A stretch of DNA of 33,575 bases, taken from IMG/VR virus record IMGVR_UViG_637000261_000005. The stretch is one strand, 5' to 3'. Source of the stretch: a virus. Its lineage: Duplodnaviria; Heunggongvirae; Uroviricota; Caudoviricetes. Below are positions 5,001 to 33,059 of this stretch, one piece after another. Each line of letters begins with the position of its first letter. The stretch's first letter is position 1. A program made the translations under genes and the position numbers. The notes beneath the pieces are model-generated. The model saw only the letters and a program-made list of their open reading frames with translations. It was not told the DNA's origin and did not search any database.

Positions 5001-5170
5001 GAAAAAGCTGATATGCAAAGTACTGATTTAACCGGTGAGGATGTTAATCTTATGATGTTTTTTTCAATAAAATTCCATTTTAAATTCGAATAAAATGGAT
5101 TTTTAACCATTTTATTACGAACATAGTTCTTTGCTAAAATCTCTGTTGCACTTAAAAATTGTCCAATCAT
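2051..5170 (-). CDS. Hypothetical 1039-aa membrane-anchored protein; four N-terminal transmembrane helices plus ~850-aa soluble region; AT-rich cargo gene of unknown function
   Basis: Uninterrupted 3120-nt ORF in conspicuously AT-rich DNA where stops are frequent; hydrophobic segments about aa 48-69, 90-115, 131-155, 161-191; K/E/L-rich probable coiled coil about aa 760-825; no Walker A, RT, TOPRIM or nuclease motifs seen. Confidence 0.85.
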   Translation of the reverse strand: MIGQFLSATEILAKNYVRNKMVKNPFYSNLKWNFIEKNIIRLTSSPVKSVLCISAFSFVLLYVGYLNELFIKNNLLHYFPFRHSLTEWQTTILSGQLTIIGIVYPLVIGLVSVLFQKKADRKIAQTAYQRYSGFMLAGLSGLFLSGFILLSVLIKTVFGSYLYGIACLISILWLLINIVLSIWFFIVSLEILDDVKRQIIIKRYIAFEIVMPHICNKISAKLRLYPIYQKHNYSNLEITQADYKGEYISVASSYSKEDELSLYHRPFQLTLNLINYQLKKKNHFASFVIGDNRTKETESTGKILFSVKNIKPDSLLIKILKQCFYRAPIKGGDFSVSLTMQAITADTYMYLRDSDLISFDNAISALINNFNNLCDLYFFQDDNTNNNFLLITTELFERSFQYEFSDEVYKISNNSMDKINLSERFFELCLWSGVRIINNRKHLISNELCIYMGITRSQWSILTEWFRNNQSLLNASLRSRYNRILRTYITVWEQYQESINFRFCNTENSDLFELFCKTQLQELPSMIIDATQTRDPSTIDTAVDLINRWQHSMNIDSHSVEKYSYKGQLFNPGFFISKKLNFNSDREWFNIAIINALTDMRICTCLYLTSRINTSDKLMTHYIKLILEGKLIDQTGGYETPTEEIDNASQLIKILIRICLWTWSENMEHNGWMNSLARRLRDYDKTDMVMGRVYSNVFDCGFIDMEQSWVQLLLIFSKKNDSVSKEIKEAIENNYITYREKQRLIGVLSKICNSIEYTKIKLTLTLDDLQTKKENLRKLLQEHINMLKKDLDMRLQDAAIDVHRLDSTARKTSEHLRKRIKKTLPLSLFKSIDFKQASDCFTKHKISIKIDKEPYAEGIESIPYINEGDIQADLILKDIQRIILSNLFSTGCSQHTVIEDFNMLIDHIKSSADLAGKLVLVMSKEIFQQYNRMLFDNPNLRELMRKNDDGSMNITTESGTRKVYFLPFVNQPFSLVVKDNYFTKLIIREYDNNKLVNVTSENIKSDSDKFKLTLNYELNIVFEGNADLKIAHSQRVTSE

Positions 5171-5418: not shown

Positions 5419-6528
5419 TTATTCTGTTTCTGCTATCCATTCCGGGATTTTTGCTTCAAGTTCAAGCTGCGTGGTAAAGCCGCTGTTATCAATGGTGTGC
5501 TCGGCTTTTGCAATAGTCCAGTCCTGATAATCAATCTCGCTTTTAAAGCCTGTCACTGTGCCATGCATTTCGGGATAGAGTTCTGCACGACCACGCGCCA
5601 GCGTGATGGAGAATGATGCGGCTCCGCGTTGTAGCTGCTGCCACTTTGCCGCCGCTGCGCGTCTTGCTGCCTGCTCGTTCTGATAAGTCTTGCGTAACAC
5701 AAACACGTTGCCTTCCGCACCTTCCATATAGTCGCCTTCCCGACTGCTGCTTTTCTCCTTTTTGGGTTTTGGCGGTTTGCGGCGTTTCACGCTGACTTTT
5801 TTCTTTTTCCCGTAATTAAGATCAAGCCAGTAGGCGCGTACCCCCGTATACGCCTCGCGGTCAGCAATGCGGAACTGATGGCGATCGCCGCTGCTGCGTG
5901 TAATGGCGAACGAGGGCAACGGCTGCCCCTGTGCGTTCACGCCACCACCTGGCATGATGAATAACAGATTGCCGCTTTTTACCGTGGCGATTGCTCCCAG
6001 CATTTCCGCCATGCGCGTAAGAAAGGACATGTCGCTTTCTTCGGTCTGGTCGGCGTGGTCGATTTCGATATCCATCAGCATTTCGCTGATTTGCGGTTTC
6101 AGACCGTACCGATGAGTGATGGCGGATACCACACGCTCAACGGTCACATCATGCCAGGACACCTCACGTTTAACGTTAAATTCATCCCGAAAATCTGCGC
6201 TTCTGGCTGAAACAGTCAGCCTGTCCGGCGGTCCTTCGTGAGCGATTTCATCAACAATGTAAGTGCCTTTTTCTGTCAGCGGTTCCCCTTTCCAGCCAAT
6301 GAGAACCGTCAGACGCGCGCCCCGTGGCGGTAGCTGCAACTGACCATCCGCATCATCCAGCGTGATGGTGAGCTGGTCCGCCTCAAATCCCCGGTTGTCG
6401 GTCAGTTACAGGCTCATCAGGCGCTCCGCCACGCCTGACAGCGTTTTACCCTCCGAGAGAATATCAAAATCCGGCATTTTCACGGGGGCCGTGCCCTGAC
6501 TGAGCAATTGCATGGTGGTGTCGGTCAT
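5419..6528 (-). pseudogene. D: P2 gpD-like tail protein gene interrupted by an in-frame TAA at codon 41 (6406-6408)
   Basis: ATG at 6526-6528 with GGAGGGAG RBS; 40 codons (MTDTTMQLLSQGTAPVKMPDFDILSEGKTLSGVAERLMSL), then TAA, then the same frame continues LTDNRGFEADQLTITLDDADGQLQLPPRGARLTVLIGW... to 5419. Confidence 0.85.
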
Positions 6529-6584
6529 CTGCTCCCTCCCTGTGCGGCATGGTCGCATGTGCGTGCGGAGGGGGTTACTGCTTT

Positions 6585-6608
6585 TTGTTGTCGCCGTGGC
6601 GGGAGAAC
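6585..6608 (+). promoter_or_regulatory. Candidate activator-dependent late promoter element upstream of the sheath gene
   Basis: TTGTTGT-N12-AGAAC about 80-100 bp upstream of the FI start; the same motif recurs upstream of P at 25255-25278. Confidence 0.35.
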
Positions 6609-6685
6609 GGCGCAGGGGTGAGATTACGCGCGTGGTGGGTGATGATTGTTGCTGAATCATTTAACGGATACAAGGGGCTGAAGCT

Positions 6686-7870
6686 ATGAGTGAAACTCGT
6701 TTTCATGGTGCCCGTGTTACGGAGAATACCGACCTGGTAACAGCGATTAACGATGTTGATTCCAGCGTTATCGGTATCGTGGCAACGGCGGATGATGCGG
6801 ACGCGAAGCTGTTCCCGCTGAACAAGCCCACACTGCTGACCCGCGTCAATGACGTGCTGGGAAAATGCGGGACAACGGGGACGCTTTATCGTGCGCTTAA
6901 GGCCATCGCAGACCAGGTGAGCACAAAGGTGATCGTCGTTCGCGTGGCTGAACACAAAGAAGAAGACGGAAAGACGCAGGATCAACTGGTTATCGGTGGT
7001 TCTGAGGATGACGGCAGCTATACGGGGATGTATGCGCTGCTTGTTGCAGAGCAGGATGAAAGCATCGGATACCGTCCGCGTATTCTGGCCGCGCCGGAGC
7101 TGGACACGGAGGCGGTAACAAAATCCCTGTGCGTGATTGCAGATAAACTGCGCGCGTTTGTGTATGCCTCATGTCATGGCTGTAACACGATGGCCGAGGC
7201 AATTACCTACCGCCAGAAATTCAACGAACGTGAGGTGATGCTCTTATGGCCGGACTTCATCGCCTACAACCCGAAAAATGGCAAAAACGAAACGTTCCCC
7301 GCGCCTGCCTATGCGTGCGGCCTTCGTGCGTACATTGACCATGAACAGGGATGGCACAAATCGCTGTCCAACGTTCCGGTTAAAAATGTGCTGGGGATGT
7401 CGAGGCATGTGTTCTGGTCGTTGCAGGCCGAAGACAGCGATGCCAACAGCCTCAACGACAAAGAAATCACGACCATTATTCGTCGCAACGGGTTCCGCTT
7501 CTGGGGTAACCGCACACCGGAAACGAACGCCTACATCTTTGAGGTGTATACCCGAACCGCACAGGTGCTGGCTGATTCAATTGCGGAAGCGCAGTTTGAA
7601 ACCATCGACAGTCCACTGACGCCTGCGAATGTGAAGGATGTTATCAGTGCCATCAGGGCAAAACTGGATTCACTGGTGACTGCCGGGAAACTGATTGGCG
7701 CGGAGTGCTGGTATGACGTGGTGGATAACAGCACCACGGATTTACGTCAGGGACGTGTGCGTATTCGCTACAAATATACGCCCGTTCCGCCACTGGAAGA
7801 CATGGAGCTTTACCAGACGTTTACTGATGAATACTTTGAACCCGCATTTGCGGTGCTGGGAGGTGCCTGA
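6686..7870 (+). CDS. FI: Tail sheath protein (P2 gpFI-like)
   Basis: 394-aa ORF with conserved sheath blocks (KPRILA, LRAF, QGWHKSLSNV, IRRNGFRFWGNRT, YTPVPPLE). Confidence 0.9.
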   Translation: MSETRFHGARVTENTDLVTAINDVDSSVIGIVATADDADAKLFPLNKPTLLTRVNDVLGKCGTTGTLYRALKAIADQVSTKVIVVRVAEHKEEDGKTQDQLVIGGSEDDGSYTGMYALLVAEQDESIGYRPRILAAPELDTEAVTKSLCVIADKLRAFVYASCHGCNTMAEAITYRQKFNEREVMLLWPDFIAYNPKNGKNETFPAPAYACGLRAYIDHEQGWHKSLSNVPVKNVLGMSRHVFWSLQAEDSDANSLNDKEITTIIRRNGFRFWGNRTPETNAYIFEVYTRTAQVLADSIAEAQFETIDSPLTPANVKDVISAIRAKLDSLVTAGKLIGAECWYDVVDNSTTDLRQGRVRIRYKYTPVPPLEDMELYQTFTDEYFEPAFAVLGGA

Positions 7871-8380
7871 TGGCTGTGCCAAAACATCTTCGCTTTTTTA
7901 CGCTGTTTGTGGATGGTGAAAACGAAGTGGGTAATGTGACGTCCGTCACTCTGCCTAAGCTGACGCGCAAAACCGACAGCTACCGGGGTGGTGGCATGAT
8001 GGGTGCGGTAAGTATTGATCTCGGTCTGGACGACTCCGCGCTTGATGCGAGCTTTGTCATGGGGGCGCAGTTCGTGAGCTGTTCCTTAAGTATGGCGGCA
8101 CGATTGACGGCACGCTGCTGCGTTTTGCGGGTGAATACTACACCGATGCAGAAAGCGACCTGTATGAAGTCGAAATGCGCGGACGTGTGACGGAAATTGA
8201 TATGGGGGAAGCCAAACAGGGCGAAGCCACATCACACACTTACGCCATTAAAACACCTACTACAAGCTGAGTGTTAACGATCGCCCGTTGTGGGAGATTG
8301 ACCTGCTGAACTTCATTTACCGGAAGGACGGCAAGGACATTGTGCCCGATCGCATCCGTTCCGCGCTTGGGCTTGGCTGA
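7870..8380 (+). pseudogene. FII: Tail tube protein (P2 gpFII-like) split across three frames by two single-base deletions in homopolymer runs
   Basis: Frame 1 to about 8065 (...DASFVMG), frame 0 (GAVRELFLKYGGTIDGTLLRFAGEYY...HTYAIK) to 8250, frame 2 (TYYKLSVNDRPLWEIDLL...ALGLG) to the TGA at 8378-8380; shifts sit in G5 at 8061-8065 and A4 at 8250-8253. Confidence 0.8.
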
Positions 8381-8435
8381 TAAGTAATATGCTGGCGGCG
8401 CAGTGCGTCGCCTCTGACTGAAAAGGAGACAACAG

Positions 8436-8810
8436 ATGAAAGACATCGATACTGAAACCCGGAATAACACCGTGGCGGATAATGTGACGGCAGTTGAGGA
8501 TATGGCTGTCGAACGTGGCGTAAAACTGACCCGACCAATTGAGCGTGGTGCCGAAAAAATCACGTATGTGGAGATCACCGGGGCTATTGAGCAGGCTGGA
8601 TCCCTGCGTGGTCTGTCGCTGTCTGATGTGCTGAATCTGAAAGCGGATACCATGTTCACGCTGTTGCCTCGCGTGACCTCGCCACGACTGGATGAAGTGA
8701 TGATTAAAAAAATGTCGTCACGCGATTTTATTCAGTTGTGCGCTGTGGCTGTAAATTTTATGAGCGAGCCAGACTCTGGCGCGAAGAGCGTGCAGGAGAC
8801 GGCAGCGTAA
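8436..8810 (+). CDS. E: Tail assembly chaperone (P2 gpE-like)
   Basis: 124-aa ORF with AAAAGGAG RBS, between tube and tape-measure genes. Confidence 0.75.
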   Translation: MKDIDTETRNNTVADNVTAVEDMAVERGVKLTRPIERGAEKITYVEITGAIEQAGSLRGLSLSDVLNLKADTMFTLLPRVTSPRLDEVMIKKMSSRDFIQLCAVAVNFMSEPDSGAKSVQETAA

Positions 8811-8923
8811 TCACCCTGGTGTGCTTTGAGCACATCGAAGATCTGGTGGCGGATATTGCCGCCATTTTTAACTGGTCGCCCGCCGAAATCTTCATGATGA
8901 CGCCCGGCGAAGTGGTTAGCTGA
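8436..8923 (+). CDS. gpE+E' extended chaperone made by programmed -1 frameshift at A_AAT_TTT (8753-8759)
   Basis: Heptamer fits X_XXY_YYZ in the E frame; the -1 frame is open from there (YERARLWREERAGDG...) to a TGA at 8921-8923, 2 nt before the T ORF; position matches the conserved E/E' (G/GT-type) frameshift of myophage tail operons. Confidence 0.5.
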
Positions 8924-8924
8924 C

Positions 8925-11768
8925 GTGAGCGGGCGGCACTTCGTAGCGGGAATGCAGACAATGAAGACTCTTGATATCCGGGTCGCTTTCAGCGCCGTTG
9001 ACAGGCTGACCCGGCCTGCCGAAAACGCCCGCCGCCTGATGGGGCAGTTTGGTGACTCCATCCAGCGAACGCAGGGGGCGATCAAAAATCTCGAGCGTCA
9101 GGCGCGATCATTTGAGCGCGCCCGTGACGCTGTCAGTAAAGCGGATGCTGGCATCGTGAAAGCACGACGCCAGCTTAACGCCCTTAATCAGTTACAACGC
9201 ACGGGTACAGTGCTCAGCGAAAAACAACAAAAGCTGATGCAGCAGTTAAGCACCCGGCTTGAACGCCTGAATGAATCGCGCACACGGGAAATTCAGAAAA
9301 TGCGGGAGCTTGGCGGAGAGCTGAAACGCCACGGCATTTCCCTGACAGGTAGCGATAACACCATCCAGCAGGCCATCAGACGCACCGAACAGTACAACAA
9401 CCAGCTTGAACGCGAACGGCAGGCGCTTGCGCGTGTAACACGGGCGCGTGAGCGGTATTCGCGCGCGCAGGAAACAGCGGGAAAACTGAAAACAGGTGGT
9501 GCGCTGGCAATTGGTGCGGCAGCGGCGGGCGGCTATGCTGCCGGGCGTTTTTTGCAGCCTGCGATCGGGTTCGGCAAAGAGATGTCCCGCGTTCAGGCAC
9601 TGACGCGAATCGACCAGAACAGCCCGCAGTTTAAGGCGCTGCGTGAGCAGGCGTTAAAACTTGGCTCTGAAACGCAGTTCACCGCAGGCGATGCCGCCAG
9701 TGGACAGGCATTTCTTGCAATGGCTGGCTTTACACCACAGGCCATTCAGGCTGCGCTCCCTGGCGTACTGAGCATGGCAACGGCTGGCGGTATGGACCTC
9801 GGTGAGACGGCGGATATTGGCTCAAATATTCTGACGCAGTTCGGTCTTTCTGCTGACCAGATGGACCGGGTCGGCGACACACTCACCGCAGCGTTTACCC
9901 GTACCAACACTGACCTTCGCGCACTGGGTGAAACCATGAAATATGCAGGTCCGGTGGCGGGTAAGCTGGGAATATCTCTGGAGCAGGCCGCAGCGATGGC
10001 GGGCGTGCTGGCGAATATGGGTATCAGGGGGAGTGATGCTGGTACGGCAATGCGTGCCAGCCTGGCTCGTCTGGCATCACCGCCAAAGGCGGCAGCAGAG
10101 GCGCTGAAAGAGCTTGGCGTGTCTGTCTCGGATGCCGGGGGCAAAATGCGCCCGATGGAGGATGTGCTGGCTGACCTTTATAAAGCTACCCGCAAATACG
10201 GGGAAGTTGACCGGGTATCGTTCTTTAAGGACATTGCCGGAGAAGAGGCTTTCACATCATTTATGGCCCTCGTTGATGCGGCAGGTGACGGCTCCTTACC
10301 CAAACTGAGAAAAGAACTTGAAGGCGCGCGCGGTGAGGCTGAACGCACGGCAAAGGTTATGGCCAACAACCTTGACGGCGATCTGAAATCACTCAGCAGT
10401 GCATGGGAAGGGTTGCGCATCCGCATTGCAGATCTGATTGACGGTCCGCTGCGTTCTGTCACGCAGTGGCTCACGCGTGTGGTATCAAAGGTGACGGCGC
10501 TGGCGCAGGCCCATCCCGCACTGACGCGCCAGCTACTGATTGCAGGCGGTGCATTGCTGGCAATGACTGCAACGGTTGGCTCGTTGTCGCTGGCTATTGG
10601 TGTGCTTGCTGGCCCGCTGGCAAAACTGCGTCTTGGTTTTTCCCTCCTGACCGGATCAATGAATGCTGTCAGGGTTCTGCCAGCACTATGGGGAATGGTG
10701 ACGGGTTCCGTTTCTTTACTGGGAGGCGCTATCGGGGCGTTGTTCAGTCCGGTTGGTCTTATCGTGGCTGCGCTTGCCGGAGCTGCCGTTCTTATCTGGA
10801 AATACTGGGATCCCATCAGGGCATTTTTTGCCGGGGTGTTCAGCGGGATTATGGAAAGGCTGACCCCGTTGCGCGAAACCTTTGAACGGTTTGGTCCTGT
10901 TTTTGACGCAATCGGGAGTGGGATCAGCCAGGTGTTTAACTGGTTTAAATCGCTGCTGTCACCGATGGAGTCCAGCAAGGAAACTCTGGATAAATGTACC
11001 AGTGCTGGCGAGATATTCGGTAACGTTCTTGGCGGTGCGTTACAACTTGTTCTGACACCTGCAAAAATGTTGCTGGATACGCTGGCGTGGATACTTGAAA
11101 AGCTTGGTGTGCTTCCGGATGAAGCGGAAAGGGCGCGCAAGAAAATCGAAGACGCACAGCGTGCGGCCATTCTTCAGGACAAGGTTGCCTTGCTTCAGGG
11201 GGATCTGGCGAAAATCAATCCGCCGAAGCCTGTGGAAAATGGCAATGGCACCGGAGGTGATAACCCCAAAGACAATAAACCGCTCACAGACAGCAATACC
11301 GGTACGCTGCGCAGACTCAGCAAAATTGCTGATAACACAGGTAAGCTGGTTGAGGAGACGAAAAAACGCATTGGCCCCGGCGATATTGTCTTTAAAAACC
11401 TGCCCCGAGCACTTGCTGTTCGTGGGGAGTGGCAGGAGCGGAAGATTGCGCAGGTCAGTAAGCCTGCCCCCGCAATTAATATCACACCCGTGGTTCCGGC
11501 TCCGCTGCCTCCGGCGCTGGTCCCTGTTGTTGCAGCCAGCTCCCGCCCGGTGGCGGAGGCTATACGATCTCCAGTGGCATCAGTTCCTGTAACTTCCCGT
11601 AACCGGGAGCCTGTTGCCTTCGGATTTGGTGGTGAAATTCATGTTCATCTGCATAACGTTGTTACGCAGAATCCCCGCGAACTGGCGAAACTGGTCGGTG
11701 AAATGGTCAGGGCAGAAATGGAACGGCGCGCCCGTGCCGGGCGTGGCTGTTTTTACGATAAAGATTGA
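8925..11768 (+). CDS. T: Tail tape measure protein (P2 gpT-like); start uncertain (GTG 8925, ATG 8952 or 8961)
   Basis: 947-aa ORF with coiled-coil N-terminal region, Gly/Ala-rich hydrophobic central segments, located after E/E'. Confidence 0.9.
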   Translation: MSGRHFVAGMQTMKTLDIRVAFSAVDRLTRPAENARRLMGQFGDSIQRTQGAIKNLERQARSFERARDAVSKADAGIVKARRQLNALNQLQRTGTVLSEKQQKLMQQLSTRLERLNESRTREIQKMRELGGELKRHGISLTGSDNTIQQAIRRTEQYNNQLERERQALARVTRARERYSRAQETAGKLKTGGALAIGAAAAGGYAAGRFLQPAIGFGKEMSRVQALTRIDQNSPQFKALREQALKLGSETQFTAGDAASGQAFLAMAGFTPQAIQAALPGVLSMATAGGMDLGETADIGSNILTQFGLSADQMDRVGDTLTAAFTRTNTDLRALGETMKYAGPVAGKLGISLEQAAAMAGVLANMGIRGSDAGTAMRASLARLASPPKAAAEALKELGVSVSDAGGKMRPMEDVLADLYKATRKYGEVDRVSFFKDIAGEEAFTSFMALVDAAGDGSLPKLRKELEGARGEAERTAKVMANNLDGDLKSLSSAWEGLRIRIADLIDGPLRSVTQWLTRVVSKVTALAQAHPALTRQLLIAGGALLAMTATVGSLSLAIGVLAGPLAKLRLGFSLLTGSMNAVRVLPALWGMVTGSVSLLGGAIGALFSPVGLIVAALAGAAVLIWKYWDPIRAFFAGVFSGIMERLTPLRETFERFGPVFDAIGSGISQVFNWFKSLLSPMESSKETLDKCTSAGEIFGNVLGGALQLVLTPAKMLLDTLAWILEKLGVLPDEAERARKKIEDAQRAAILQDKVALLQGDLAKINPPKPVENGNGTGGDNPKDNKPLTDSNTGTLRRLSKIADNTGKLVEETKKRIGPGDIVFKNLPRALAVRGEWQERKIAQVSKPAPAINITPVVPAPLPPALVPVVAASSRPVAEAIRSPVASVPVTSRNREPVAFGFGGEIHVHLHNVVTQNPRELAKLVGEMVRAEMERRARAGRGCFYDKD

Positions 11769-11774
11769 GGAGTC

Positions 11775-12269
11775 ATGGCCATGATGATGATCTACGGCAT
11801 GTTTGTTTTTGAGCTGCGCACGCTGCCGCATCAGCAGTTACAGCAAAACAAAAGCTGGCGGCATGTGAAAAATGAACGCGTTAACCGTTCAGCAAGCTGG
11901 CAGTATATCGGTGCAGGTGATGATCGCATCGTTCTTTCTGGTGTGCTTTATCCTGAAATTACAGGTGGCGAAGTGTCGCTGTCGCTGCTGACTACGCAGG
12001 CGTATACAGGACGACCCTGGCCTTTGATTGATGGCGTCGGGCAGATTTACGGCATGTATGTCCTGACTGAAACGAATACGACCCGCTCCGAGTTTGATCG
12101 CTACGGTAAGGCGAAAAAGATAGAATTTTCACTGACTCTTGAACGCTGTGATGAGGATTTGCGGGAGCGCCTGCAATCCTCATCGTTCAGTGATATGCTG
12201 TCCGGCTTCAAAGATAAGGTGACATCATCTCTTAACAGCGCGGCCAGTTCAGTTAAAGGGCTGTTCTGA
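11775..12269 (+). CDS. U: Tail protein U (P2 gpU-like)
   Basis: 164-aa ORF directly after the tape-measure gene. Confidence 0.8.
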   Translation: MAMMMIYGMFVFELRTLPHQQLQQNKSWRHVKNERVNRSASWQYIGAGDDRIVLSGVLYPEITGGEVSLSLLTTQAYTGRPWPLIDGVGQIYGMYVLTETNTTRSEFDRYGKAKKIEFSLTLERCDEDLRERLQSSSFSDMLSGFKDKVTSSLNSAASSVKGLF

Positions 12270-12278
12270 TTTAACACA

Positions 12279-12308
12279 AAAACCGCTAATGGTCAGATTA
12301 GCGGTTTT
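12279..12308. terminator. Bidirectional palindromic terminator shared by convergent U and invertase genes
   Basis: Perfect 12-bp inverted repeat AAAACCGCTAAT/ATTAGCGGTTTT with 6-bp spacer; overlaps the invertase stop codon (12298-12300). Confidence 0.5.
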
Positions 12309-12915
12309 CATTTTCCTGAGTCTGCCCGGTTGTTTCTTCAGTCTGTATATCGCCTACAGGGTGATAACGATAAATCGTCGATGTGCCAATGCCGTAAATT
12401 ATTGCCAGTTGTTTTCTGTCGTGCCCGTTTTTGATTAGCCTTGCTATTTGCTCATGCTGTTCTTTTGTCAGCTTCGGTCGACGTCCGCCTGTGCGCCCCC
12501 TTGCGCGCGCTGCCGCCAGCCCGGCCAGTGTACGTTCAACAATTAATTCACGTTCCATTTCAGCCAGGGCACCCATCACGTGGAAGAAAAAACGCCCCAT
12601 TGGAGAAGATGTGTCTATGCTGTCGGTCAGACTGCGAAAATTAATCCCTCGCTCCCGTAGTTCCCCGACGAGAGAAATCAGATGTTTCATGCTTCGCCCG
12701 AGGCGATCCAGTTTCCAGACAACCAGCGTGTCACCTTTTTGAAGGCGCTTTAAAGCGCGTTTTAATCCCGGTCGGTCTGTCTTTGTCCCGCTTAATTTAT
12801 CTTCAAATATTTGTTCACATCCTGCACAAACAAGAGCGTTTTGTTGCAGGTCTGTATTCTGGTCATTTGTTGATACCCTTACATAGCCAATCAGCACACT
12901 GAATCTCCCGTCCAA
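12298..12915 (-). CDS. pin: Serine DNA invertase (Pin/Gin/Hin/Cin family); likely true start GTG at 12895-12897
   Basis: LIGYVRVSTNDQNTDLQ...GDTLVVWKLDRLGRSMKHL...FFFHVMGALAEMERELIVERT... carries the catalytic Ser motif and conserved blocks of Pin/Gin; sits immediately outside crossover site 1. Confidence 0.9.
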   Translation of the reverse strand: MDGRFSVLIGYVRVSTNDQNTDLQQNALVCAGCEQIFEDKLSGTKTDRPGLKRALKRLQKGDTLVVWKLDRLGRSMKHLISLVGELRERGINFRSLTDSIDTSSPMGRFFFHVMGALAEMERELIVERTLAGLAAARARGRTGGRRPKLTKEQHEQIARLIKNGHDRKQLAIIYGIGTSTIYRYHPVGDIQTEETTGQTQENENR

Positions 12916-12951
12916 AAGCGCAAATCATGCCATGCAGGCCAGAAACGGCCA

Positions 12952-12977
12952 TTATTTAAAACCTCGGTTTACGAGAA
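12952..12977. other. hix/gix-like inversion crossover site 1
   Basis: TTATTTAAAACCTCGGTTTACGAGAA; inverted copy of site 2 (21/26 identical, core ACCTCGGTTTAC identical); imperfect internal dyad. Confidence 0.7.
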
Positions 12978-13673
12978 CTCGGCACAAGCGGGGAGAAAAT
13001 ACCGTTACTCAGTACAGCGAATACCTGGACCAATCGACAAACATTCAGCGGTGGCCTTTCTGGGGAACTGTCCGGCAATGCCGCTACTGCAACAAAGCTG
13101 AAAACAGCACGAAAAATTGCTGGAGTTGGTTTTGATGGTTCTAGCGATATCTCAATTAGTGCCAAAAATGTCAATGCATTTGCACTCCGACAAACAGGTA
13201 ATACTGTTAATGGTGATACATCCGTTGGATGGAATTGGGATAGTGGTGCATATAACGCCCTGATTGGTGGTGCATCTGCATTAATTCTTCACTTTAATAT
13301 AAATGCTGGTAGCTGTCCTGCCGTACAATTCCGTGTGAATTATAAAAATGGTGGCATTTCCTACAGGTCGGCTCGTGATGGTTATGGGGTTGAATTACGT
13401 TGGTCAGATTTCTATACCACGACACGAAAACCTTCAGCGGGAGATGTTGGTGCATATACGCGGGCAGAATGTAACTCAATGTTTATTACAGGTATTCGCC
13501 TTGGCGGTCTGTCATCTGTTCAGACATGGAATGGTCCCGGCTGGTCTGACAGGTCAGGTTATGTCGTTACGGGTTCAGTTAACGGAAACCGTGATGAATT
13601 AATTGATACAACACAGGCAAGGCCAATTCAGTATTGCATTAATGGGACGTGGTATAACGCGGGGAGTATTTAA
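12966..13673 (+). CDS. Alternative tail-fibre C-terminal segment (Sv'-like), promoterless and without start codon in current orientation
   Basis: Open frame in register with site 1 (...TNRQTFSGGLSGELSGNAATATKL... to ...PIQYCINGTWYNAGSI); ends with the same INGTWYN motif as H; would fuse in frame to H after inversion. Confidence 0.65.
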   Translation, partial: GLRELGTSGEKIPLLSTANTWTNRQTFSGGLSGELSGNAATATKLKTARKIAGVGFDGSSDISISAKNVNAFALRQTGNTVNGDTSVGWNWDSGAYNALIGGASALILHFNINAGSCPAVQFRVNYKNGGISYRSARDGYGVELRWSDFYTTTRKPSAGDVGAYTRAECNSMFITGIRLGGLSSVQTWNGPGWSDRSGYVVTGSVNGNRDELIDTTQARPIQYCINGTWYNAGSI

Positions 13674-13675
13674 CG

Positions 13676-14209
13676 ATGATGCACTTAAAAAACATTACTG
13701 CTGGCAACCCTAAAACAAAAGAGCAATACCAGCTAACAAAGCAATTTAACATCAAATGGCTTTATTCAGATGATGGAAAAAACTGGTATGAGGAACAAAA
13801 GAATTTCCAGCCAGACACTTTGAAAATGGTCTATTACCATAACGGCGTTATTATTTGTATTGAAAAGGATGTTTCAGCAATTAATCCGGAAGGCGCAAGC
13901 GTCGTTGAATTACCTGATATTACAGCAAATCGCCGGGCTGATATTTCGGGGAAATGGTTGTTCAAAGATGGCGTAGTGATAAAGCGAACTTATACCGAGG
14001 AAGAGCAGAGGCAACAAGCGGAAAATGAAAAGCAAAGCCTGTTGCAACTTGTCAGGGATAAAACCCAGCTATGGGACTCACAGCTACGGCTGGGCATCAT
14101 TTCCGACGAGAATAAACAAAAATTAACCGAGTGGATGCTCTATGCGCAGAAAGTCGAATCTACAGACACCTCCAGCCTGCCAGTAACGTTTCCCGAACAA
14201 CCAGAATGA
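13676..14209 (+). CDS. Tail fibre assembly chaperone, alternative copy
   Basis: 177-aa [25 protein letters not shown]...; paralogous to the minus-strand copy at 14238-14766. Confidence 0.8.
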   Translation: MMHLKNITAGNPKTKEQYQLTKQFNIKWLYSDDGKNWYEEQKNFQPDTLKMVYYHNGVIICIEKDVSAINPEGASVVELPDITANRRADISGKWLFKDGVVIKRTYTEEEQRQQAENEKQSLLQLVRDKTQLWDSQLRLGIISDENKQKLTEWMLYAQKVESTDTSSLPVTFPEQPE

Positions 14210-14212
14210 GAG

Positions 14213-14232
14213 AAGGCCCGATATTGGGCCTT
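14213..14232. terminator. Hairpin between the convergent tail-fibre assembly genes
   Basis: AAGGCCC-GATATT-GGGCCTT inverted repeat followed by T-rich tract on plus strand. Confidence 0.4.
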
Positions 14233-14237
14233 AATTT

Positions 14238-14766
14238 TTACTCAGGCTTTTGTGGCCATTCGGGATTTGCTGTATCCACACGGCTGACCAGAACGCTGTA
14301 GCGTTCCCATGACTCCAGTCGTGTGCGTTCCTCATCCATCGCCATATTCAGCCTGACAGCGCGTTCCAGTGGCTGAATAACGCTTTCAGCTTCAGAAAGC
14401 AACGCGACCTTTTGTGATTCGGCCTGTTGTTGCTGTTCGTCTGCTGTATAAATCCGCTTAACCACAGTTCCGTCCTTAAACATCCACTTCCCTGAATCAT
14501 CGGCACGACGATTGGCTGTTATATCTGGAATCTCAACGACACTAAAGCCTTCGGGATTAAGTGTTGGGGCATCTTTGGTTATGGCAACAATAATATTATT
14601 TTCGTCGTATACAATCTTTATGGTGTCGTCCTGAAAGTTATTTACTTCCTCATACCAGTTTTTACCGTCTTCGGACCATAACCAGATAACATCAAAATTC
14701 TTTGTTAGCTGATATTGTTCTTTTGTTTTTGGATTTCCGGACTTAATATTTTTTAATATGCTGCAT
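14238..14766 (-). CDS. Tail fibre assembly chaperone (P2 gpG-like), currently expressed copy; N-terminus disturbed by 1-bp insertion in a T6 run (14749-14754)
   Basis: ATG at 14764-14766, 3 nt after the H stop, reads MQHIKKY-stop; removing one A restores [22 protein letters not shown]..., parallel to the alternative copy. The ORF track frame extends upstream to 14846. Confidence 0.7.
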
Positions 14767-14769
14767 AAT

Positions 14770-16920
14770 TTACACCTGTGCGACGTTATACCATGTGCCA
14801 TTGATGTATTTTTGTATTGGTCTGAAGATGGCTTCATCATCGCCATCTACTTCACCAATGATTCTTAATCCGGTAATTGCGTGTCCGGCTTTTTCATAAC
14901 GACCACCACGCGCCATCAATTGAACAACACGCGTACCCAGGCGAACATCTTTTACATAGCGTGAATCAAAATTCCCCCAGTTGCTGGGCTGTATCTGACC
15001 GTTAACAGAAAATATTACCGAGTTATCTGTATTTCGCTGGCTATAGAAATGCCATCCTGCCTCATTGCCTAACTCTGCAACTACTGGACGGGTTGAAGCA
15101 CCCCATAAATTAAACGTTGCATTCTTTGTGGAGTTGTTGGAGCTGGATAGCGTGAATTTTTTACCATCCCCGGCCTGAATATTTTTAAAAGCAATAGCCA
15201 CTCCATTCTGAAAGCGGAATACACGCTGACTATTAGCATAAACATCCAGAATACCGTCTCCATTCTGTTTAAATCCGGTGTCATTATCACCAAGAACAAT
15301 AGAGCTACCACCTAACGCATTCGTCGAACCAACTCCAAGACTGCCATTAATGACAGCATTAACAAGAATATTTAGTGCATCCCATTTCAGCGTCATCAGG
15401 TCTTTTGTTGTGGTGCTCTGGCGGCTTCTCCATTTGAAATATTCATTGCCGTTGTCGCCTGTTTCAAACCACATGTATGAATCAGTGTCACCATCGGCAT
15501 CATTTTTAAATCCAATCTTCGCCCAGTCAGTATTTCGAATCCAGGCAAGGATTGAGTCATTTTCAAAAGTAAGCCCACCGGACAAGGTATCGCCATTTTT
15601 TTGCACGGCGTTACCAGCCCTGTTTACCGTTTCCTGTAAACCGAGGTATTCGATAACGGCAGCAACGGTCGATTTCGCAAGAATATCCCGCCCGACTTTT
15701 GTCAGGGTTGCCAGGCTGGCGACATCATTCCCCGTAAAATACGGAAACCTGTCTGCCGCAGTAGCAAGCCCGGCCAGCGCCGTCAGGGTGGCATCTTTCG
15801 GTTGCTTACCCGCAAGCGCGTTAGTCATGGTGGTCGCAAAATTCGGGGCGTTTCCCAGCGCCGCCGCTAACTCGTTCAGCGTATTCAGTGCGTCAGGTGA
15901 CGAATCTACAAGGGCGGCAATCGCAGCCATAACGAAAGCCGTGCTTGCGATTTGGGTATTATTCGTTCCCTGTCGCGCAGCTGGCGTTGTTGGCGTTCCG
16001 GTCAGCGCAGGACTGTTTAAGGGCGCTTTCTTGTTCGTTTCATCCATTACCGCCTTAACCGCTTTCGATGTCGCGGCCAGTGTTTCAGACGTGCTGTTGG
16101 TGGCACTACTGAGCTGGACTATCCCTTTTTGTGCCGTCGTGGCGTCCTGAGCGGTATATTTTGCGTTAGCAAGGTCATACGCGGCCTTTACTGCTTTCGG
16201 CGTTGCAGCCTGCGTTTCAGACGTGCTGTTGGTGGCGCTACTGAGCTGGACAAGGCCTTTTCGCGTCGTGCTGGCATCCTGCGCAGTATATTTACCGTTA
16301 GCAAGATCATACGCGGCCTTTACTGCTTTCGGCGTTGCAGCCTGCGTTTCAGACACGCTGTTAGTGGCGCTACTGAGTTGAACAAAGCCTTTTGCGGTCA
16401 GCGAGGCGTCCGGGTGACGTCGTGACTGTTCATGCTCTTTCAGTTTGTCATCCACGTAATCCACTGTGGCCATCACCATGGTGTTGTCCACGGTAAGCGC
16501 CACGGTGGCAGTGCTGGATACGGTCAGAATGGTGCGAAATGTTTGTGCACGACCGGACCCTTCGGCAACGGCTGGCTTGTAACTTTCGGCAGTATTTCCC
16601 ACCGCGATTAAATCGCCGTGCTCATCAAATACACCAATTTCCCGGATCCAGAATCCGCCCGTTTCAGGAGGAATAACCAGCTCCGCAATAATGCGGTTCT
16701 GATGTGTTGCGTCCAGGATGACGCGATTAACAGTATGTCGCCACACCTCATGCACCAGACGGGTCTGCTTACTGTCTGGTGTGGGCAACGTGCCGCCACC
16801 GTCGCCCACGGCCATATGAGTCAGGCGGACAGGCTTACCATCTGGCGCGGCTACCTGAGCTAATTTTTTTGCACCCGTATCGGTGATAATGGTTTTAAAT
16901 TTTCGTGTTGTGGTACTCAT
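14770..16920 (-). CDS. H: Tail fibre protein (P2 gpH-like); C-terminal part (14770 to about 15643) lies inside the invertible segment
   Basis: 716-aa ORF with tandem fibre repeats and C-terminal ...[11 protein letters not shown]; crossover site 2 is within codons ...VIEYLGLQE.... Confidence 0.9.
15631..15656. other. hix/gix-like inversion crossover site 2, inside gene H
   Basis: TTCCTGTAAACCGAGGTATTCGATAA; reverse complement TTATCGAATACCTCGGTTTACAGGAA matches site 1. Confidence 0.7.
16036..16401 (-). repeat. Three tandem ~132-bp (44-aa) repeats within H
   Basis: Protein repeats KG[24 protein letters not shown]...DLAN-x-KYTAQDA at H residues about 174-295; near-identical nucleotide copies visible. 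Confidence 0.6.
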
Positions 16921-16922
16921 GC

Positions 16923-17453
16923 TTAATCGCCTGGATAAATGGTAATAACTTCACCGTCATAAGTTGCCGCCGCTGCGAAAATATCCCCCGGAATTTCCTG
17001 AATGATATTCAGCCCTGTCATGTGGCGGCTGACCGGGCGGGCATCAGCAATCAACCGCTCCATTTCCAGATACATTTCCTCCGTCACGCCACTGTCCAGC
17101 GTGCCGACTTCAACGGTAAATGTTCCCGGTTCTCCGCCGAACTCCCACCACTCAGACACGCGAATGAGGTATCCCAGCGGCTCAATGGCCCGGCGCAGTG
17201 CGCTGATGGTCCCTTTGTGTCGGTGTATCAGCCATGCATCACGAATAACCTGTCGCTTTGTCTCTTCCGGCCAGTTGCGATCCCAGCGGTCAACGGAAAA
17301 CGCCCAGGCGAGATAAGGCAGCAGATGCACCGGGCAGGTGTCCGGCGACCACAGCGTGTTGAGGTCTACCGGAATGTCTGTAATGCGTGTTCCGACGGCT
17401 TCGGCACAACGCATGAAATTGCTGGCTGATGGTGGTAACAACGAATTACTCAT
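16923..17453 (-). CDS. I: Baseplate assembly protein (P2 gpI-like); ATG 17451-17453 preferred over GTG 17486
   Basis: Position between H and J; start overlaps J stop by 8 nt. Confidence 0.75.
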   Translation of the reverse strand: MSNSLLPPSASNFMRCAEAVGTRITDIPVDLNTLWSPDTCPVHLLPYLAWAFSVDRWDRNWPEETKRQVIRDAWLIHRHKGTISALRRAIEPLGYLIRVSEWWEFGGEPGTFTVEVGTLDSGVTEEMYLEMERLIADARPVSRHMTGLNIIQEIPGDIFAAAATYDGEVITIYPGD

Positions 17454-18342
17454 TGCGTCCACCTTCGCTGATGGTGAATGACTCACAGCGCGCCGCCTGT
17501 ATGTCGCTGATGGCCATATTCTGTGTGGGTTCGATTATCTCCACGCGTTGCACACCGTGCACATGCAGTGCGGCAGCAATGGCGGACAACGCCACGTCCT
17601 GACCGATAAGCCCCTGCTCAGCCAGCCACTTCCTGAACGACGATTCAGCCGCGGCCAGAATAGGTTCGGATTCCGGGCCGGGGTAAAAGTACAGTTTTGC
17701 ATTCAGCCGCCATGTCACGATTCTGGCACTCTGTACGGTCAGGCGGTCGGCCACCGGGCGGGTATCCTCTGCATTCAGAACGGCGCGAACGGTATTAAGC
17801 AACGCCTCCGTTGCTGTGCCGTCGCCCTCAGTGGACAGGATGGAAACCGTCACGTTGGCCGGAGACGGGCTGATGGCCCGCGCATCGCGTACCAGACCGC
17901 TGGCGCTGCGTGCAAAATACTCGTATGCACCTGACGGGCCAGCAACACTCAGACCGTCATATGCCCGTTGCGCCCGTAGTCTCAGCGAGGTGTCACTTTC
18001 CATCACTGCATCGGTGGTATCCGTTGCCGGAGTGATAACCAGGCGCTTTGTGTTCATATTGCCCGCGAGGTTGTCCAGGTCTGTCCCGGCGCTGTGGCTT
18101 AGCATGCAGGCGCGTGCACCCTCATTGACCCGCTGGCGTAACAGCATTTCACGAAACGACATGGTTTGAGCGATAACGTTAAGGGGTTCCGATTCCAGCT
18201 CCAGCGCGGCGGAAACGGCTTCACGCTGTTCGGCGGGATAGGACGCAATCATCATGGCCTTTGTGTCAGCCAGAATTGCCTCAAAGTCAGGCTCCGCGAT
18301 GATGGCGGGTTCCGGTAACTGTGAAAGGTCAACGGCAGGCAT
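17446..18342 (-). CDS. J: Baseplate assembly protein J (P2 gpJ-like)
   Basis: 298-aa ORF, synteny W-J-I. Confidence 0.8.
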   Translation of the reverse strand: MPAVDLSQLPEPAIIAEPDFEAILADTKAMMIASYPAEQREAVSAALELESEPLNVIAQTMSFREMLLRQRVNEGARACMLSHSAGTDLDNLAGNMNTKRLVITPATDTTDAVMESDTSLRLRAQRAYDGLSVAGPSGAYEYFARSASGLVRDARAISPSPANVTVSILSTEGDGTATEALLNTVRAVLNAEDTRPVADRLTVQSARIVTWRLNAKLYFYPGPESEPILAAAESSFRKWLAEQGLIGQDVALSAIAAALHVHGVQRVEIIEPTQNMAISDIQAARCESFTISEGGRNE

Positions 18343-18345
18343 GAT

Positions 18346-18696
18346 TTACTCCCTCAGCGTGATGGTTAATTCAACATTCTGCATGGTCTGCATGACAGTG
18401 CCCGACAGCGTCACCCCGGCGCGGCCTCCTGCCTTCCAGACAACGTCGATAGCGTCCAGGGCAATGCGGGGTTCCCATCGTGTCAGCGCAATCACGGCAG
18501 CACTCATGCATTGCAGACGCGTGGTGTTATTCATGGGTTCGTCAATCAAATCAGGCACAAGGCTGCCATATTCCCGTCGCATAACCCGGCTTGCCAGCGG
18601 GGTGGTCAGGATGTCCCTGACTGACTGTTTCAGGTGCTCCATATCGTTCAGGTTTCCCGTTCCGTCCGGGTTCATTCCTGTGTAGCGGGTTGTCAC
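18346..18696 (-). CDS. W: Baseplate assembly protein W (gp25-like)
   Basis: 116-aa ORF, synteny V-W-J. Confidence 0.8.
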   Translation of the reverse strand: MTTRYTGMNPDGTGNLNDMEHLKQSVRDILTTPLASRVMRREYGSLVPDLIDEPMNNTTRLQCMSAAVIALTRWEPRIALDAIDVVWKAGGRAGVTLSGTVMQTMQNVELTITLRE

Positions 18697-19274
18697 TGCG
18701 GGCCTCCTGTCGAATCGCTGCCACCTTTAACGCCACCGTGTTTATGCGTATGCACTGTGATGCCGTTTGAGGTGAAATTGCCGCCGCTGTGCGTGATATT
18801 GCCGCTCATCTTTCCCCCTTTTGTGACGTCAAGCGTCGCCGTTCTCAGAAGGTCTGTGCATTCCACGACGGGCGTATCCAGTGTCACGCTGACGGATGCC
18901 TGCAGGGTGGCTGTTTTCATGCCGCTGGCGCTCAGTGCGCCTGCGTCCGCGTCGTAGCGGAACACCGCGCCATCCGGCGCGCTGACCACGATTTCTTTCA
19001 GGCTTTTGCCGGGGGCCGGAATGGCATCACTCCACAGGCTGCCAATTATCATGGCGGTTTCCGGGTTGCCGCCAATGCAGGCAATTACCACCTGTTCGCC
19101 TGGTGATGGCGGCAGCCACACATTGAAGGCTCCCGCGCGAGAGGTGTTCCAGCGCAGCCAACCTGTTTCCAGTTCGCCGCTGCGAACGCGCACGCGCCAG
19201 GACTTCTCATCAACTTCAGAGATGATCCCGGTGCGGATGATATTGCTCAGTAGCCGCATGAGTTCTGCGCTCAC
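18693..19274 (-). CDS. V: Baseplate spike/assembly protein V (P2 gpV-like)
   Basis: 193-aa ORF with Gly-rich C-terminal tail, preceding W. Confidence 0.8.
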   Translation of the reverse strand: MSAELMRLLSNIIRTGIISEVDEKSWRVRVRSGELETGWLRWNTSRAGAFNVWLPPSPGEQVVIACIGGNPETAMIIGSLWSDAIPAPGKSLKEIVVSAPDGAVFRYDADAGALSASGMKTATLQASVSVTLDTPVVECTDLLRTATLDVTKGGKMSGNITHSGGNFTSNGITVHTHKHGGVKGGSDSTGGPQ

Positions 19275-19915
19275 CGTACAGCCTCCGCAATCCGGCCCAG
19301 CACCGTGTTATAAATCAGGCGCTCATCTGCCTGGCTGATACCCAGCAGCTCACGTACCGGGTAATCGGTGAAAATGCCCGGCGCAACCTGATCGCGCTCA
19401 CCGAACTGATGAACGCGTGCAATACGTGCGGCCACGCCGCTGTAACCCACCGTCACACCGGAAGCATCTGCACGGGCTTTCAGGTAGCGGGCGGTGCGCA
19501 GTTTTACGAACATGGGGACGCGCTTTGTGCTGTCCTGGTTGATGCGCCGGGTGCGTATTTCCAGAAAGCGGTCGATGTCATCCCGGTAAAACGTGCGGAT
19601 GCTGTTTTTATCCTCATCCCACCCGGTGATGGTTCGCCCGTATTTCCCCGTGTCGTGATGCCAGTTTTTCAGCGTGCGTGCTTCGTTATTCCAGATAAAG
19701 CGAATGCGCTCCTGTATCCGGGTTACGTGGCGTCTGCGTGGTGTCCATGCGGTCCCGTCCGGCGCTTTCTGTGGCCGGATACGTGCCTGCTGGGCGCGGC
19801 GTAAATCCTGTGCCAGCTTTCTGGCGATGTTATTGATGGCCTGCTGATTCAGGCTGTCGCGGATGGCCTCAAAGGTTTCATCCACGCGAGTGAATGCCTT
19901 ATCCATCGCTTTCAC
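19271..19915 (-). CDS. S: Tail completion / virion morphogenesis protein (gpS-like; longer than the ~150 aa I recall for P2 S)
   Basis: 214-aa ORF between R and V. Confidence 0.65.
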   Translation of the reverse strand: MKAMDKAFTRVDETFEAIRDSLNQQAINNIARKLAQDLRRAQQARIRPQKAPDGTAWTPRRRHVTRIQERIRFIWNNEARTLKNWHHDTGKYGRTITGWDEDKNSIRTFYRDDIDRFLEIRTRRINQDSTKRVPMFVKLRTARYLKARADASGVTVGYSGVAARIARVHQFGERDQVAPGIFTDYPVRELLGISQADERLIYNTVLGRIAEAVR

Positions 19916-32168: not shown

Positions 32169-33059
32169 TCAGGCTGCCAGATCATCGTTTCCGATGGAAG
32201 CATAATAAGCTTTTTCTGCTTCTGCCGGAGGGATGTGGCCCAGCCTTTCCAGCAATCGTCGATTATTATACCAGTCCACCCACGTGAGTGTGGCCAGTTC
32301 CACTTCTGCACGGTTTTTCCAGCTCTTACGGTGTATTACCTCCGCTTTGTAAAGACCATTGATGCTCTCCGCCATCGCGTTGTCATACGAGTCGCCTGTA
32401 CTTCCTGTTGATGCCAGTAATCCGGCTTCCTTAAGCCGCTGTGTGTAGGCCAGCGATACATACTGAGAACCTTTATCACTGTGATGGACCGTGCCGGACG
32501 GTCGACGGGCCCATAACGCCTGCTCCAGTGCATCCAGCACGAATGTCGTCTCCATGGACGATGAGACCCGCCACCCCACGATGTATCCGGCAAACACATC
32601 AATGATGAACGCCACATAGACGAAGCCCTGCCATGTGCTGACGTAAGTAAAATCAGCCACCCACAGCTGGTCAGGTCGTTCTGCCACGAACTGACGGTTT
32701 ACGCGGTCGCCTGCGGCAACGGCTTTCCGGCTGATGGTCGTACGGACCTTTTTACCCCGGAGAACACCGGCAAGTCCCATAACCGCCATGAGACGTGCCA
32801 CAGTGCATCTGGCCACTCTGATGCCTTCCCGTAACAACTGACGCCAGACTTTACGCACACCGTATACCTGATGATTCCCATCGTATACGCGCAGTATCTC
32901 TTTCTTCAGCCAGTCATCGCGCTGCGCACGGGCACTGCGTTTATCAGGATGATGTCGCTGTTGCTGACAGTGGTAATACGTTGACGGGGCAATATGTAGT
33001 TCACTGCATACCGGTCCGACCCCGTACAGCTTACGCAGCTTATCCAGCAGTGGCATCAC
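32169..33059 (-). CDS. IS629-like transposase OrfB
   Basis: 296-aa ORF with DDE domain. Confidence 0.85.

Follow-up and report, generated by a model that had tools for sequence, protein, structure and literature searches.

The window, the whole 33,575-nucleotide stretch of DNA analysed here (IMG/VR record IMGVR_UViG_637000261_000005), very probably carries a two-state host-range switch of the Mu G-segment type in a P88-like prophage (Xuanwuvirus, Peduoviridae). The locus has the layout of the Mu G, P1 C and e14 P segments: one recombination site lies in the tail-fibre gene H, a constant N-terminal part can be joined to either of two C-termini, and two convergent arms, each with its own chaperone gene, meet at a terminator. 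The features are as follows.

12279..12308, no strand: hairpin terminator between the convergent gpU and invertase genes
12298..12897, minus: serine DNA invertase gene, 199 aa, GTG start, just outside site 1
12813..12876, minus: candidate Fis-dependent recombinational enhancer (Mu sis equivalent), inside the 5' part of the invertase gene
12898..12951, minus: 54-bp fixed spacer from site 1 to the invertase start, with ribosome-binding site GGGAGA
12952..12977, plus: site 1 (gixR equivalent), TTATTTAAAACCTCGGTTTACGAGAA, crossover dinucleotide TC at 12964-12965
12966..13673, plus: silent alternative fibre C-terminus, 235 codons, start-less
13676..14209, plus: assembly/chaperone gene of the alternative tip, 177 aa (Caudo_TAP, 5e-36; 96.6% identical to Mu U')
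14213..14232, no strand: hairpin terminator between the convergent assembly genes, 8-bp stem with five G-C pairs followed by a T run
14238..14766, minus: assembly/chaperone gene of the current tip (96.5% identical to Mu U, 91% to P2 G), frameshifted
14770..16920, minus: current state of tail-fibre gene H, 716 aa (Pfam Phage_tail_fib, Phage_fiber_2, Gp34_trimer)
14770-15643, minus: H variable part, 288 aa, 96% identical to the P2 H C-terminus
15631..15656, plus: site 2 (gixL equivalent), TTCCTGTAAACCGAGGTATTCGATAA, crossover dinucleotide GA at 15643-15644
15644-16920, minus: H constant part, 428 aa

The first 25 kb of the window shows 97-98% identity over 67-79% to Shae_phiSM, P88_4B11 and phage 503458, all of which are classified as Xuanwuvirus. 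Judged by its identity to these classified members, the element is a P88-like prophage and not P2, a correction to the earlier reading. A 1039-aa side ORF had no match in Pfam, NCBIfam, PADLOC or a phage tblastn search.

Recombination sites

Sites 1 and 2 are inverted copies of each other, 21/26 identical after reverse-complementing, and share the 12-bp core ACCTCGGTTTAC. Both 26-mers have an imperfect internal dyad (8/12 and 7/12), and site 2 lies inside H, where it encodes ..EYLGLQE... The hix-like pair proposed in the earlier note is thus present with its coordinates, core and dyads. The arrangement is that of the Din family, with two inverted 26-bp imperfect-dyad sites and identical central dinucleotides (TC and GA, which are complementary). 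A third site, as in the EPEC-like shufflon, was searched for in the window and none was found; there are exactly two.

By itself the 21/26 inverted match is not significant across the window, the analytic chance expectation being ~2.2 in 33.6 kb and ~0.05 in a 5-kb region; independent criteria are significant. Site 1 is identical at 22/26 positions to the Mu site adjoining gin, and site 2 at 24/26 to Mu gixL (the 26-mer taken from the Mu record). A search of the window with the gixL 26-mer returned only site 2, with two mismatches, and there were no matches in 100 shuffles. In a half-site matrix test, which is partly circular as both sites went into the matrix, they scored 32.1 and 31.0 bits; the next best score was 11.1, and the best shuffle reached 16.4. 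Inverted 26-mer pairs with at least 21/26 identities in 12000-16999 were also counted by brute force, which gave 65.5; this figure was discarded as uninformative on the sites, because it is inflated by overlapping windows in inverted paralogous sequence, namely the assembly genes and the fibre ends. In its place, the analytic expectation was used together with the Mu gix pattern test.

Fibre and assembly genes

Between the sites lie, as described earlier, the current C-terminus of H, the two assembly genes and the start-less ORF, and both fibre ends carry the INGTWYN motif. Over its last 165 aa the alternative C-terminus shows 87% identity with the Mu S' (G(-)) tip, and in relatives the ORF is annotated as "phage tail protein, missing N-terminus". 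Modelling of the inversion fused H to 12966-13673 in frame, as had been predicted, and yielded a 661-aa fibre that shares its first 428 aa with the 716-aa form.

Both assembly genes belong to Caudo_TAP and are 55% identical to each other. The earlier gene description needs one correction, in the minus-strand copy. A 1-nt insertion at 14757, after codon 3, shifts its frame, so that translation from the ATG at 14766 yields MQHIKKY before a stop codon; the insertion was carried by 0/332 E. coli records. In this copy the current orientation may not give functional fibres.

Invertase gene and candidate enhancer

The gene just outside site 1 does encode a serine invertase, as reported, with a Resolvase domain (2e-50, residues 3-135) followed by HTH_7 (4e-13, residues 138-180), and its limits are identical to those annotated in relatives. 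Its ORF is intact and includes Ser9; like other Din-family members it has an N-terminal catalytic domain with a serine near position 9-10 and a C-terminal helix-turn-helix. It aligns with Gin (PDB 4m6f) over residues 1-183, including VRVSTNDQ, at E=1e-99. A direct comparison with e14 PinE led to the label "Pin-like" being replaced by Gin-like: identity to Gin is 98% in the catalytic domain and 84.5% overall, against 86% and 77% for Pin.

The two parts of the protein differ in affinity. Residues 1-118 are identical to Mu Gin at 116/118 positions and to the EPEC P88-like invertase at 98/118, while for residues 119-199 the figures are 38/81 and 74/81, respectively. The best solved-structure match of the DNA-binding domain is Hin (52 bits). 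By these comparisons the enzyme is a chimera of a Mu Gin catalytic domain and a P88-lineage, Hin-like DNA-binding domain.

Residues uniquely conserved in enhancer-dependent invertases include the basic helix B residues K47, R48 and K51 of Hin and, in helix 1 of the DNA-binding domain, Q151, R154 and L155 (PMC3798978). The window invertase has K46, R47 and K50 in ..RPGLKRALKR.., and a Q, an R and an L that align with Q151, R154 and L155 of the deposited Hin sequence. The Fis-contact residues given in that paper are thus conserved. Din-family enhancers act in cis, carry two Fis sites and lie ~100 bp from one recombination site. A permissive motif scan, which returns many matches, places two Fis-like G-N13-C 15-mers with centres at 12869 and 12820; they lie 96 and 145 bp from the middle of site 1, as in Mu, and only this pair, position-conserved with Mu, was kept. 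The pair recurs with equal spacing in the Mu and EPEC P88-like genes. Over its first ~200 nt the gene departs from Mu gin at ~4 positions, and from this identity we infer that the region acts as the enhancer. In Mu, sis was reportedly located in the 5' part of gin by Kahmann and co-workers in 1985.

The 54-bp spacer is identical at 43/54 positions to that upstream of Mu gin and presumably contains the invertase promoter; a sigma-70 consensus scan of 12898..12951 called none.

Natural inversion in public genomes

Among complete E. coli genomes with collinear matches over 80% or more of the query, 133 have the orientation of the window and 140 are flipped. Flipped genomes have annotated proteins that agree with the modelled 661-aa fibre at 643-654 of 661 positions, and phage 503458 has a 1986-nt gene equal to it. 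NU14 and UTI89, and likewise 33E and 33F4, are near-clonal pairs of strains, identical over 10,950 bp save for an exact, recent inversion, whose breakpoints in both cases fall inside the 12-bp core (12961-12972 and 15636-15647). The two closest relatives of the window, ETEC4088 and GDSC2BY4G, both 99.6% identical and with a rare cargo gene in common, are in opposite orientations. The earlier proposal that inversion exchanges the H C-terminus together with its chaperone is supported by these genomes. What the strain pairs and the near-equal split demonstrate is inversion of the segment DNA in the lineage, rather than in the window's own molecule.

Alternative explanations

Orientation differences could in principle arise from RecA-dependent recombination between inverted repeats, or from assembly artefacts, and the segment does contain inverted paralogous sequence (the assembly genes, and a 40-nt arm pair at 78%). 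However, the breakpoints avoid the longer paralogous repeats and lie in 12 bp of identity within the gix-like sites, a length much below what RecA needs. The exact event moreover recurs in two independent pairs, and the orientations are about equally frequent across 273 genomes, which makes this explanation extremely improbable. Catalysis mainly in trans, by other Din-family invertases such as e14 Pin or the Gin of Mu-like prophages, is unlikely, and would alter the identity of the enzyme only, not the mechanism. Such enzymes reportedly cross-complement one another (Plasterk and co-workers, 1983), which favours trans action, and E. coli genomes often hold several such loci (median 2, up to 15 matching places per genome). 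On the other hand, both strains of each flipped pair have an intact copy of the adjacent invertase gene with the same product (WP_000905061.1), and this gene is conserved beside the segment in hundreds of genomes; the neighbouring enzyme is probably the one that acts.

Two private lesions bear on the state of this particular copy. One is R19Q in the invertase (codon 12841-12843), by which it differs from the enzyme of the flipped pairs; the position is Arg in all five other aligned invertases, covering Gin, Pin-type and P88-type enzymes. The assembly-gene frameshift is the other, and together they hint at decay or sequencing errors. A switch frozen in this genome, with its architecture intact and the R19Q enzyme inactive, has nevertheless a low probability. 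R19 lies outside the catalytic and Fis-contact positions described in the two structural papers searched, neither of which says anything about Gin R19 or Hin R20; apart from this change, the invertase ORF, the two sites and the enhancer region show no damage, and just 22 differences in 4,951 bp separate the locus from a relative. It is unlikely, too, that this copy works as an ON/OFF gate for infectivity instead of an A/B switch, a reading suggested by the frameshift after codon 3 in the chaperone of the current P2-type arm. If it were true, particles of the current orientation could lack functional fibres, and infectious phage would come from flipped genomes only. In the same reading the whole module of enhancer, site and cassettes would have passed from a Mu-like to a P2-like phage via recombination inside the invertase gene, as is also suggested by the chimeric make-up of the Gin/P88 enzyme and by the points where Mu homology breaks off.

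Proposed mechanism and significance

In the preferred reading, a two-state switch of the Mu G-segment type, invertase dimers would bind the two gix-like sites and synapse, with a need for a Fis-bound enhancer in the 5' part of the enzyme's own gene, by analogy with Gin and Hin. Cleavage at the central TC/GA, rotation and religation would invert 2,681 bp, from 12964 to 15644. Late transcription would come in from the constant part of H, and therefore only the arm adjoining site 2 would be expressed. The present orientation is predicted to give the 716-aa fibre with a P2 H-type tip and the G/U-type chaperone, and the flipped one the 661-aa fibre with a Mu S'(G-)-type tip and the U'-type chaperone. 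A lysogen population would therefore release particles with two receptor specificities. That the host ranges would differ is suggested by the 96% identity of one tip to P2 H and the 87% identity of the distal part of the other to Mu S'.

The switch accounts for the "partial" tail protein that annotation pipelines report here and for the 2.7-kb inversion by which near-identical strains differ in this prophage. Any one P88-like assembly shows one of the two receptor-binding tips, which matters for host-range prediction and phage engineering; a P88 host-range paper does not mention inversion (PMC5285337). With a Mu G segment, a P2 H tip and a chimeric invertase, the locus is a clean example of unrelated phage groups exchanging a whole switch as a module. 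Nothing in the mechanism is new.

Comparison with known systems

The likeness to the Mu G segment recognised earlier extends to the layout (invertase outside, two 26-bp sites, constant fibre N-terminus, central terminator, a separate chaperone for each of the two convergent arms) and, for much of the segment, to the DNA, which is ~90-91% identical over the 5' part of gin and its site, the distal part of S' with U' and U, and the site-2 region. Unlike Mu, the host phage belongs with P2, and the constant part of its fibre is P2 H-like (82% to P2 H overall). The arm in the Mu S position ends in a tip of the P2 H type, with 96% identity to P2 H and 46% to Mu S; the S'-type arm shows no relation to Mu over its proximal ~70 aa and has 235 rather than 319 codons; and the C-terminal domain of the invertase is not that of Gin (38/81). 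The segment is 2.68 kb long, compared with ~3 kb in Mu.

In the P88-like prophage of EPEC E2348/69, inversion at the homologous locus was detected in culture by sequencing and PCR (Goldberg et al. 2014, PMC4272514). The switch described here is real but ordinary, and is already documented for this phage group. The EPEC locus (NC_011601, 1891695-1893703) belongs to the same phage type and occupies the same genomic position, with the same order of gpU (an identical protein, WP_000979945.1), a 199-aa invertase, fibre cassettes and H-I-J-W; the invertases are 86% identical overall and 74/81 in the C-terminal domain. Its inverted repeats, however, are three in number, 215 bp long and Pin-type in their core, and they give four variants, whereas the window has two 26-bp Gin-type sites, two variants and different cassettes.

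P2 has counterparts of the constant part of H, the current tip and its chaperone (89% in DNA; 96% and 91% in protein), and its H retains a 25/26 copy of site 2. The invertase, the partner site and the second arm are absent, and H and G are followed by fun(Z), in agreement with the view that P2 itself has no such switch. The e14 P/Pin and P1 C/Cin systems share the invertase family (e14 Pin is 77% identical to the window enzyme) and the logic of swapping fibre C-termini; e14 has other sites and cassettes (repeat AAACCTTGGTTTGGGAGAA). The Hin/H segment of Salmonella likewise combines a Fis/enhancer-dependent serine invertase with 26-bp hix sites, but Hin lies inside its own segment and switches a promoter of flagellin genes, with no exchange of protein C-termini.

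Recombination sites and the invertible segment

The locus comprises a serine invertase gene and two 26-bp gix-like sites (site 1 and site 2) that bound a ~2.7-kb invertible segment carrying two arms, each of them a fibre C-terminus (tip) with its own assembly gene (chaperone). Its gene order agrees with the earlier note: the invertase is just outside site 1, site 2 lies within the tail-fibre gene H, and two assembly genes and a start-less ORF are found between the sites.

Features of the switch region (window coordinates)
11775-12269, plus, gpU
12279-12308, terminator hairpin 3' of gpU
12298-12897, minus, invertase gene (199 aa, GTG start, Resolvase and HTH_7 domains)
between invertase gene and site 1, fixed spacer of 54 bp
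12952-12977, site 1
12966-13673, plus, start-less fibre C-terminus
13676-14209, plus, U'-type assembly gene
14213-14232, terminator hairpin directly after the U'-type assembly gene
14238-14766, minus, U/G-type assembly gene
14770-16920, minus, H, containing site 2

Within H, three tandem 132-bp repeats (16052-16447, minus; 75-83% identical) encode Phage_fiber_2 repeats of the constant part.

Re-reading the sequence bears out the two inverted 26-mers described previously. Site 1, TTATTTAAAACCTCGGTTTACGAGAA (12952-12977), is identical at 21/26 positions to the reverse complement of site 2, TTCCTGTAAACCGAGGTATTCGATAA (15631-15656, inside H at the EYLGLQE codons); they share the 12-bp core ACCTCGGTTTAC, and each has an imperfect internal dyad, as had been claimed. 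Serine invertases require complementary central dinucleotides in sites of inverted orientation, and these are TC in site 1 and GA in site 2. An inverted match of 21/26 is by itself not rare, being expected by chance ~2.2 times per whole window (~0.05 per 5 kb), and it is independent tests that settle the sites as real. The gixL sequence taken from the Mu record has a sole match in the window, which is site 2 (2 mismatches; 0 matches in 100 shuffles). A half-site matrix, to which these sites themselves contributed, finds exactly two sites when run over the whole window; they score 32.1 and 31.0 bits, whereas the next best position reaches 11.1 and the best shuffle 16.4.

Inversion in natural genomes

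When the stretch 12964-15644 is inverted in silico, the first 428 residues of H join 12966-13673 in frame to give a 661-aa protein, so that the predicted fusion holds. This flipped arrangement is found in phage 503458, UTI89, 33F4, and GDSC2BY4G; in each of them a fibre gene of 1986 nt is annotated, and its product equals the model at 643-654 of the 661 positions. To score orientation, 5,426 complete E. coli genomes were searched twice, with the window sequence and with the modelled flipped sequence, and a collinear match with at least 80% query coverage was counted; a genome in the opposite state reaches only 46% in one place. The window orientation is present in 133 genomes and the flipped orientation in 140.

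In two near-clonal strain pairs, NU14/UTI89 and 33E/33F4, an exact inversion is the sole difference across 10,950 bp, and all solutions for the breakpoint fall inside the 12-bp core, corresponding to 12961-12972 and 15636-15647 of the window. The closest relatives of the window, ETEC4088 and GDSC2BY4G (both 99.6% identical), are in opposite orientations and have in common a cargo gene present in only 5 genomes. RecA-dependent recombination was considered as the cause of the flips and rejected: an identity of 12 bp is too short, and the longer paralogous inverted repeats in the segment are not the breakpoints. The strain comparisons are thus natural evidence that site-specific inversion has taken place recently and repeatedly at the predicted sites, and the proposal that inversion swaps the C-terminus of H is upheld, with both states occurring in E. 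coli.

The invertase

The enzyme is chimeric: residues 1-118 are identical to Mu Gin at 116/118 positions and to the invertase of the P88-like prophage of EPEC E2348/69 at 98/118, whereas for residues 119-199 the counts are 38/81 and 74/81, respectively. Among solved structures, Hin is nearer than Gin to the C-terminal domain. The enzyme had been labelled Pin-like, a description that is valid only at the family level because Gin is nearer than e14 Pin, both in the catalytic domain (98% vs 86%) and overall (84.5% vs 77%). The features unique to Fis/enhancer-dependent invertases, namely basic residues of helix B together with Q151, R154, and L155 in Hin numbering (McLean et al., 2013; PMC3798978), are all kept in the window invertase.

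The first ~200 nt of the gene have ~4 differences from Mu gin, and two Fis-like 15-mers are positioned as they are in Mu, their distances from the site 1 centre being ~96 and ~145 bp. Kahmann and colleagues reportedly located the Mu enhancer within this 5' part of gin in 1985. The 5' part of the window gene may likewise contain an enhancer, judging from these sequence similarities.

The host element

Across most of its first 25 kb the window shares 97-98% identity with Shae_phiSM, P88_4B11, and phage 503458, and it belongs to the P88-like prophages of the genus Xuanwuvirus (Peduoviridae). It is distinct from P2, in which H and G are followed by fun(Z) and there is no invertase; the earlier remark that P2 is without such a switch was accurate. 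The gpD gene (minus) and FI-FII-E-T-U (plus) occupy 5419-12269, the latter converging on the invertase and the H-I-J-W-V block (minus, 12298-19900), whereas in P2 the same genes all run in one direction. The converging order appears to be a genus feature, as it is common to Shae_phiSM, 503458, and P88_4B11.

Two sets of IS3-family transposase ORFs near the window ends (480-1708, HTH_Tnp_1 and rve; 32169-33059, rve) suggest that IS elements have inserted into the prophage or next to it. A 1039-aa ORF (2051-5170, minus), situated between an IS3-family element and gpD/ogr, has a local GC content of 32-34%, whereas the prophage otherwise has ~52-58%. Searches of Pfam, NCBIfam, and PADLOC gave no hit for this ORF, nor did tblastn against 50,697 phage records; its DNA occurs in only 5 of the 5,426 complete E. 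coli genomes, annotated as 'MFS transporter' or 'hypothetical protein'. It is possibly an uncharacterised cargo or defence gene of a P2-like hotspot.

Peculiarities of this copy

In the U/G-type chaperone gene (14238-14766, minus), a single-base insertion at 14757 shifts the frame after codon 3, and the ATG frame encodes MQHIKKY before terminating (7 codons). None of NU14, 33E, P88_4B11, P2, and the 332 E. coli records with the junction has this insertion, which is a mutation private to this copy or else an error in sequencing. Codon 19 of the invertase gene (12841-12843) is CAA (Gln) in place of the CGA (Arg) of relatives; Arg occupies this position in all five other invertases aligned (Mu Gin, both EPEC enzymes, NU14, and GDSC2BY4G), and residue 19 is not mentioned in the two structural papers searched. 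R19Q, like the insertion, could be a sequencing error. If both changes are real, particles made in the current orientation may have defective fibres, and flipping may proceed at a changed rate.

Comparison with known systems

The switch is a mosaic of Mu-like and other sequence. The 5' part of Mu gin with the adjacent gix site is 91% identical to 12509-12972, the distal S' region with U' and U is 90% identical to 13175-14805, and the region by gixL is 91% identical to 15343-15656, whereas 12973-13174 and 14806-15342 are not Mu-like. Among the proteins, the expressed tip shares 96% identity with the C-terminus of P2 H and only 46% with Mu S; the chaperone of this tip shares 96.5% with Mu U and 91% with P2 G. 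In the silent arm, the chaperone has 96.6% identity to Mu U', and the final 165 residues of the tip have 87% identity to Mu S'. By inference from these similarities, the switch would present either a P2-type or a Mu G(-)-type tip. E. coli C and K-12 are hosts of the P2 type; Citrobacter, Shigella sonnei, and Enterobacter are hosts of the Mu G(-) type. P2 H itself contains a 25/26 copy of site 2, TTCCTGTAAACCGAGATATTCGATAA (~2877-2902 of the P2 locus), although P2 is without an invertase, a partner site, or a second arm. Because the site also serves to encode conserved residues (..EYLGLQE..), a lone gix-like site is no evidence of a switch.

Goldberg et al. (2014; PMC4272514) used paired-end sequencing and PCR to show that tail-fibre loci of "P2-like" prophages in EPEC E2348/69 undergo continuous flipping during culture. 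One of these loci (NC_011601 1891695-1893703) belongs to a P88-like prophage and is in the position homologous to the window switch; its gpU protein is identical to that of the window (WP_000979945.1) and its 199-aa invertase is 86% identical. It differs in its cassette set, having three 215-bp repeats and four variants (Goldberg et al., 2014; NC_011601 1886000-1899000), and therefore the part of the fibre region next to the invertase is a hotspot for swaps in this genus. A 2024 preprint describes P2-like phages as often having an invertase in this hotspot, with inversion of adjacent genes. Inversion is unmentioned in the P88 host-range paper (PMC5285337), and P88_4B11, 503458, and Shae_phiSM have GenBank entries in which annotations for the invertase and the two fibre genes are already present.

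Taken together, the original observation is confirmed and its interpretation supported, with three corrections: the invertase is Gin-like rather than Pin-like, the element is P88-like rather than P2, and one chaperone is frameshifted in this copy. Novelty is low because the switch is of the Mu G type, ~90% identical to the archetype, in a genus for which inversion has been shown experimentally at the same locus; the finding correctly identifies a system of familiar type in a phage group that is itself already known.
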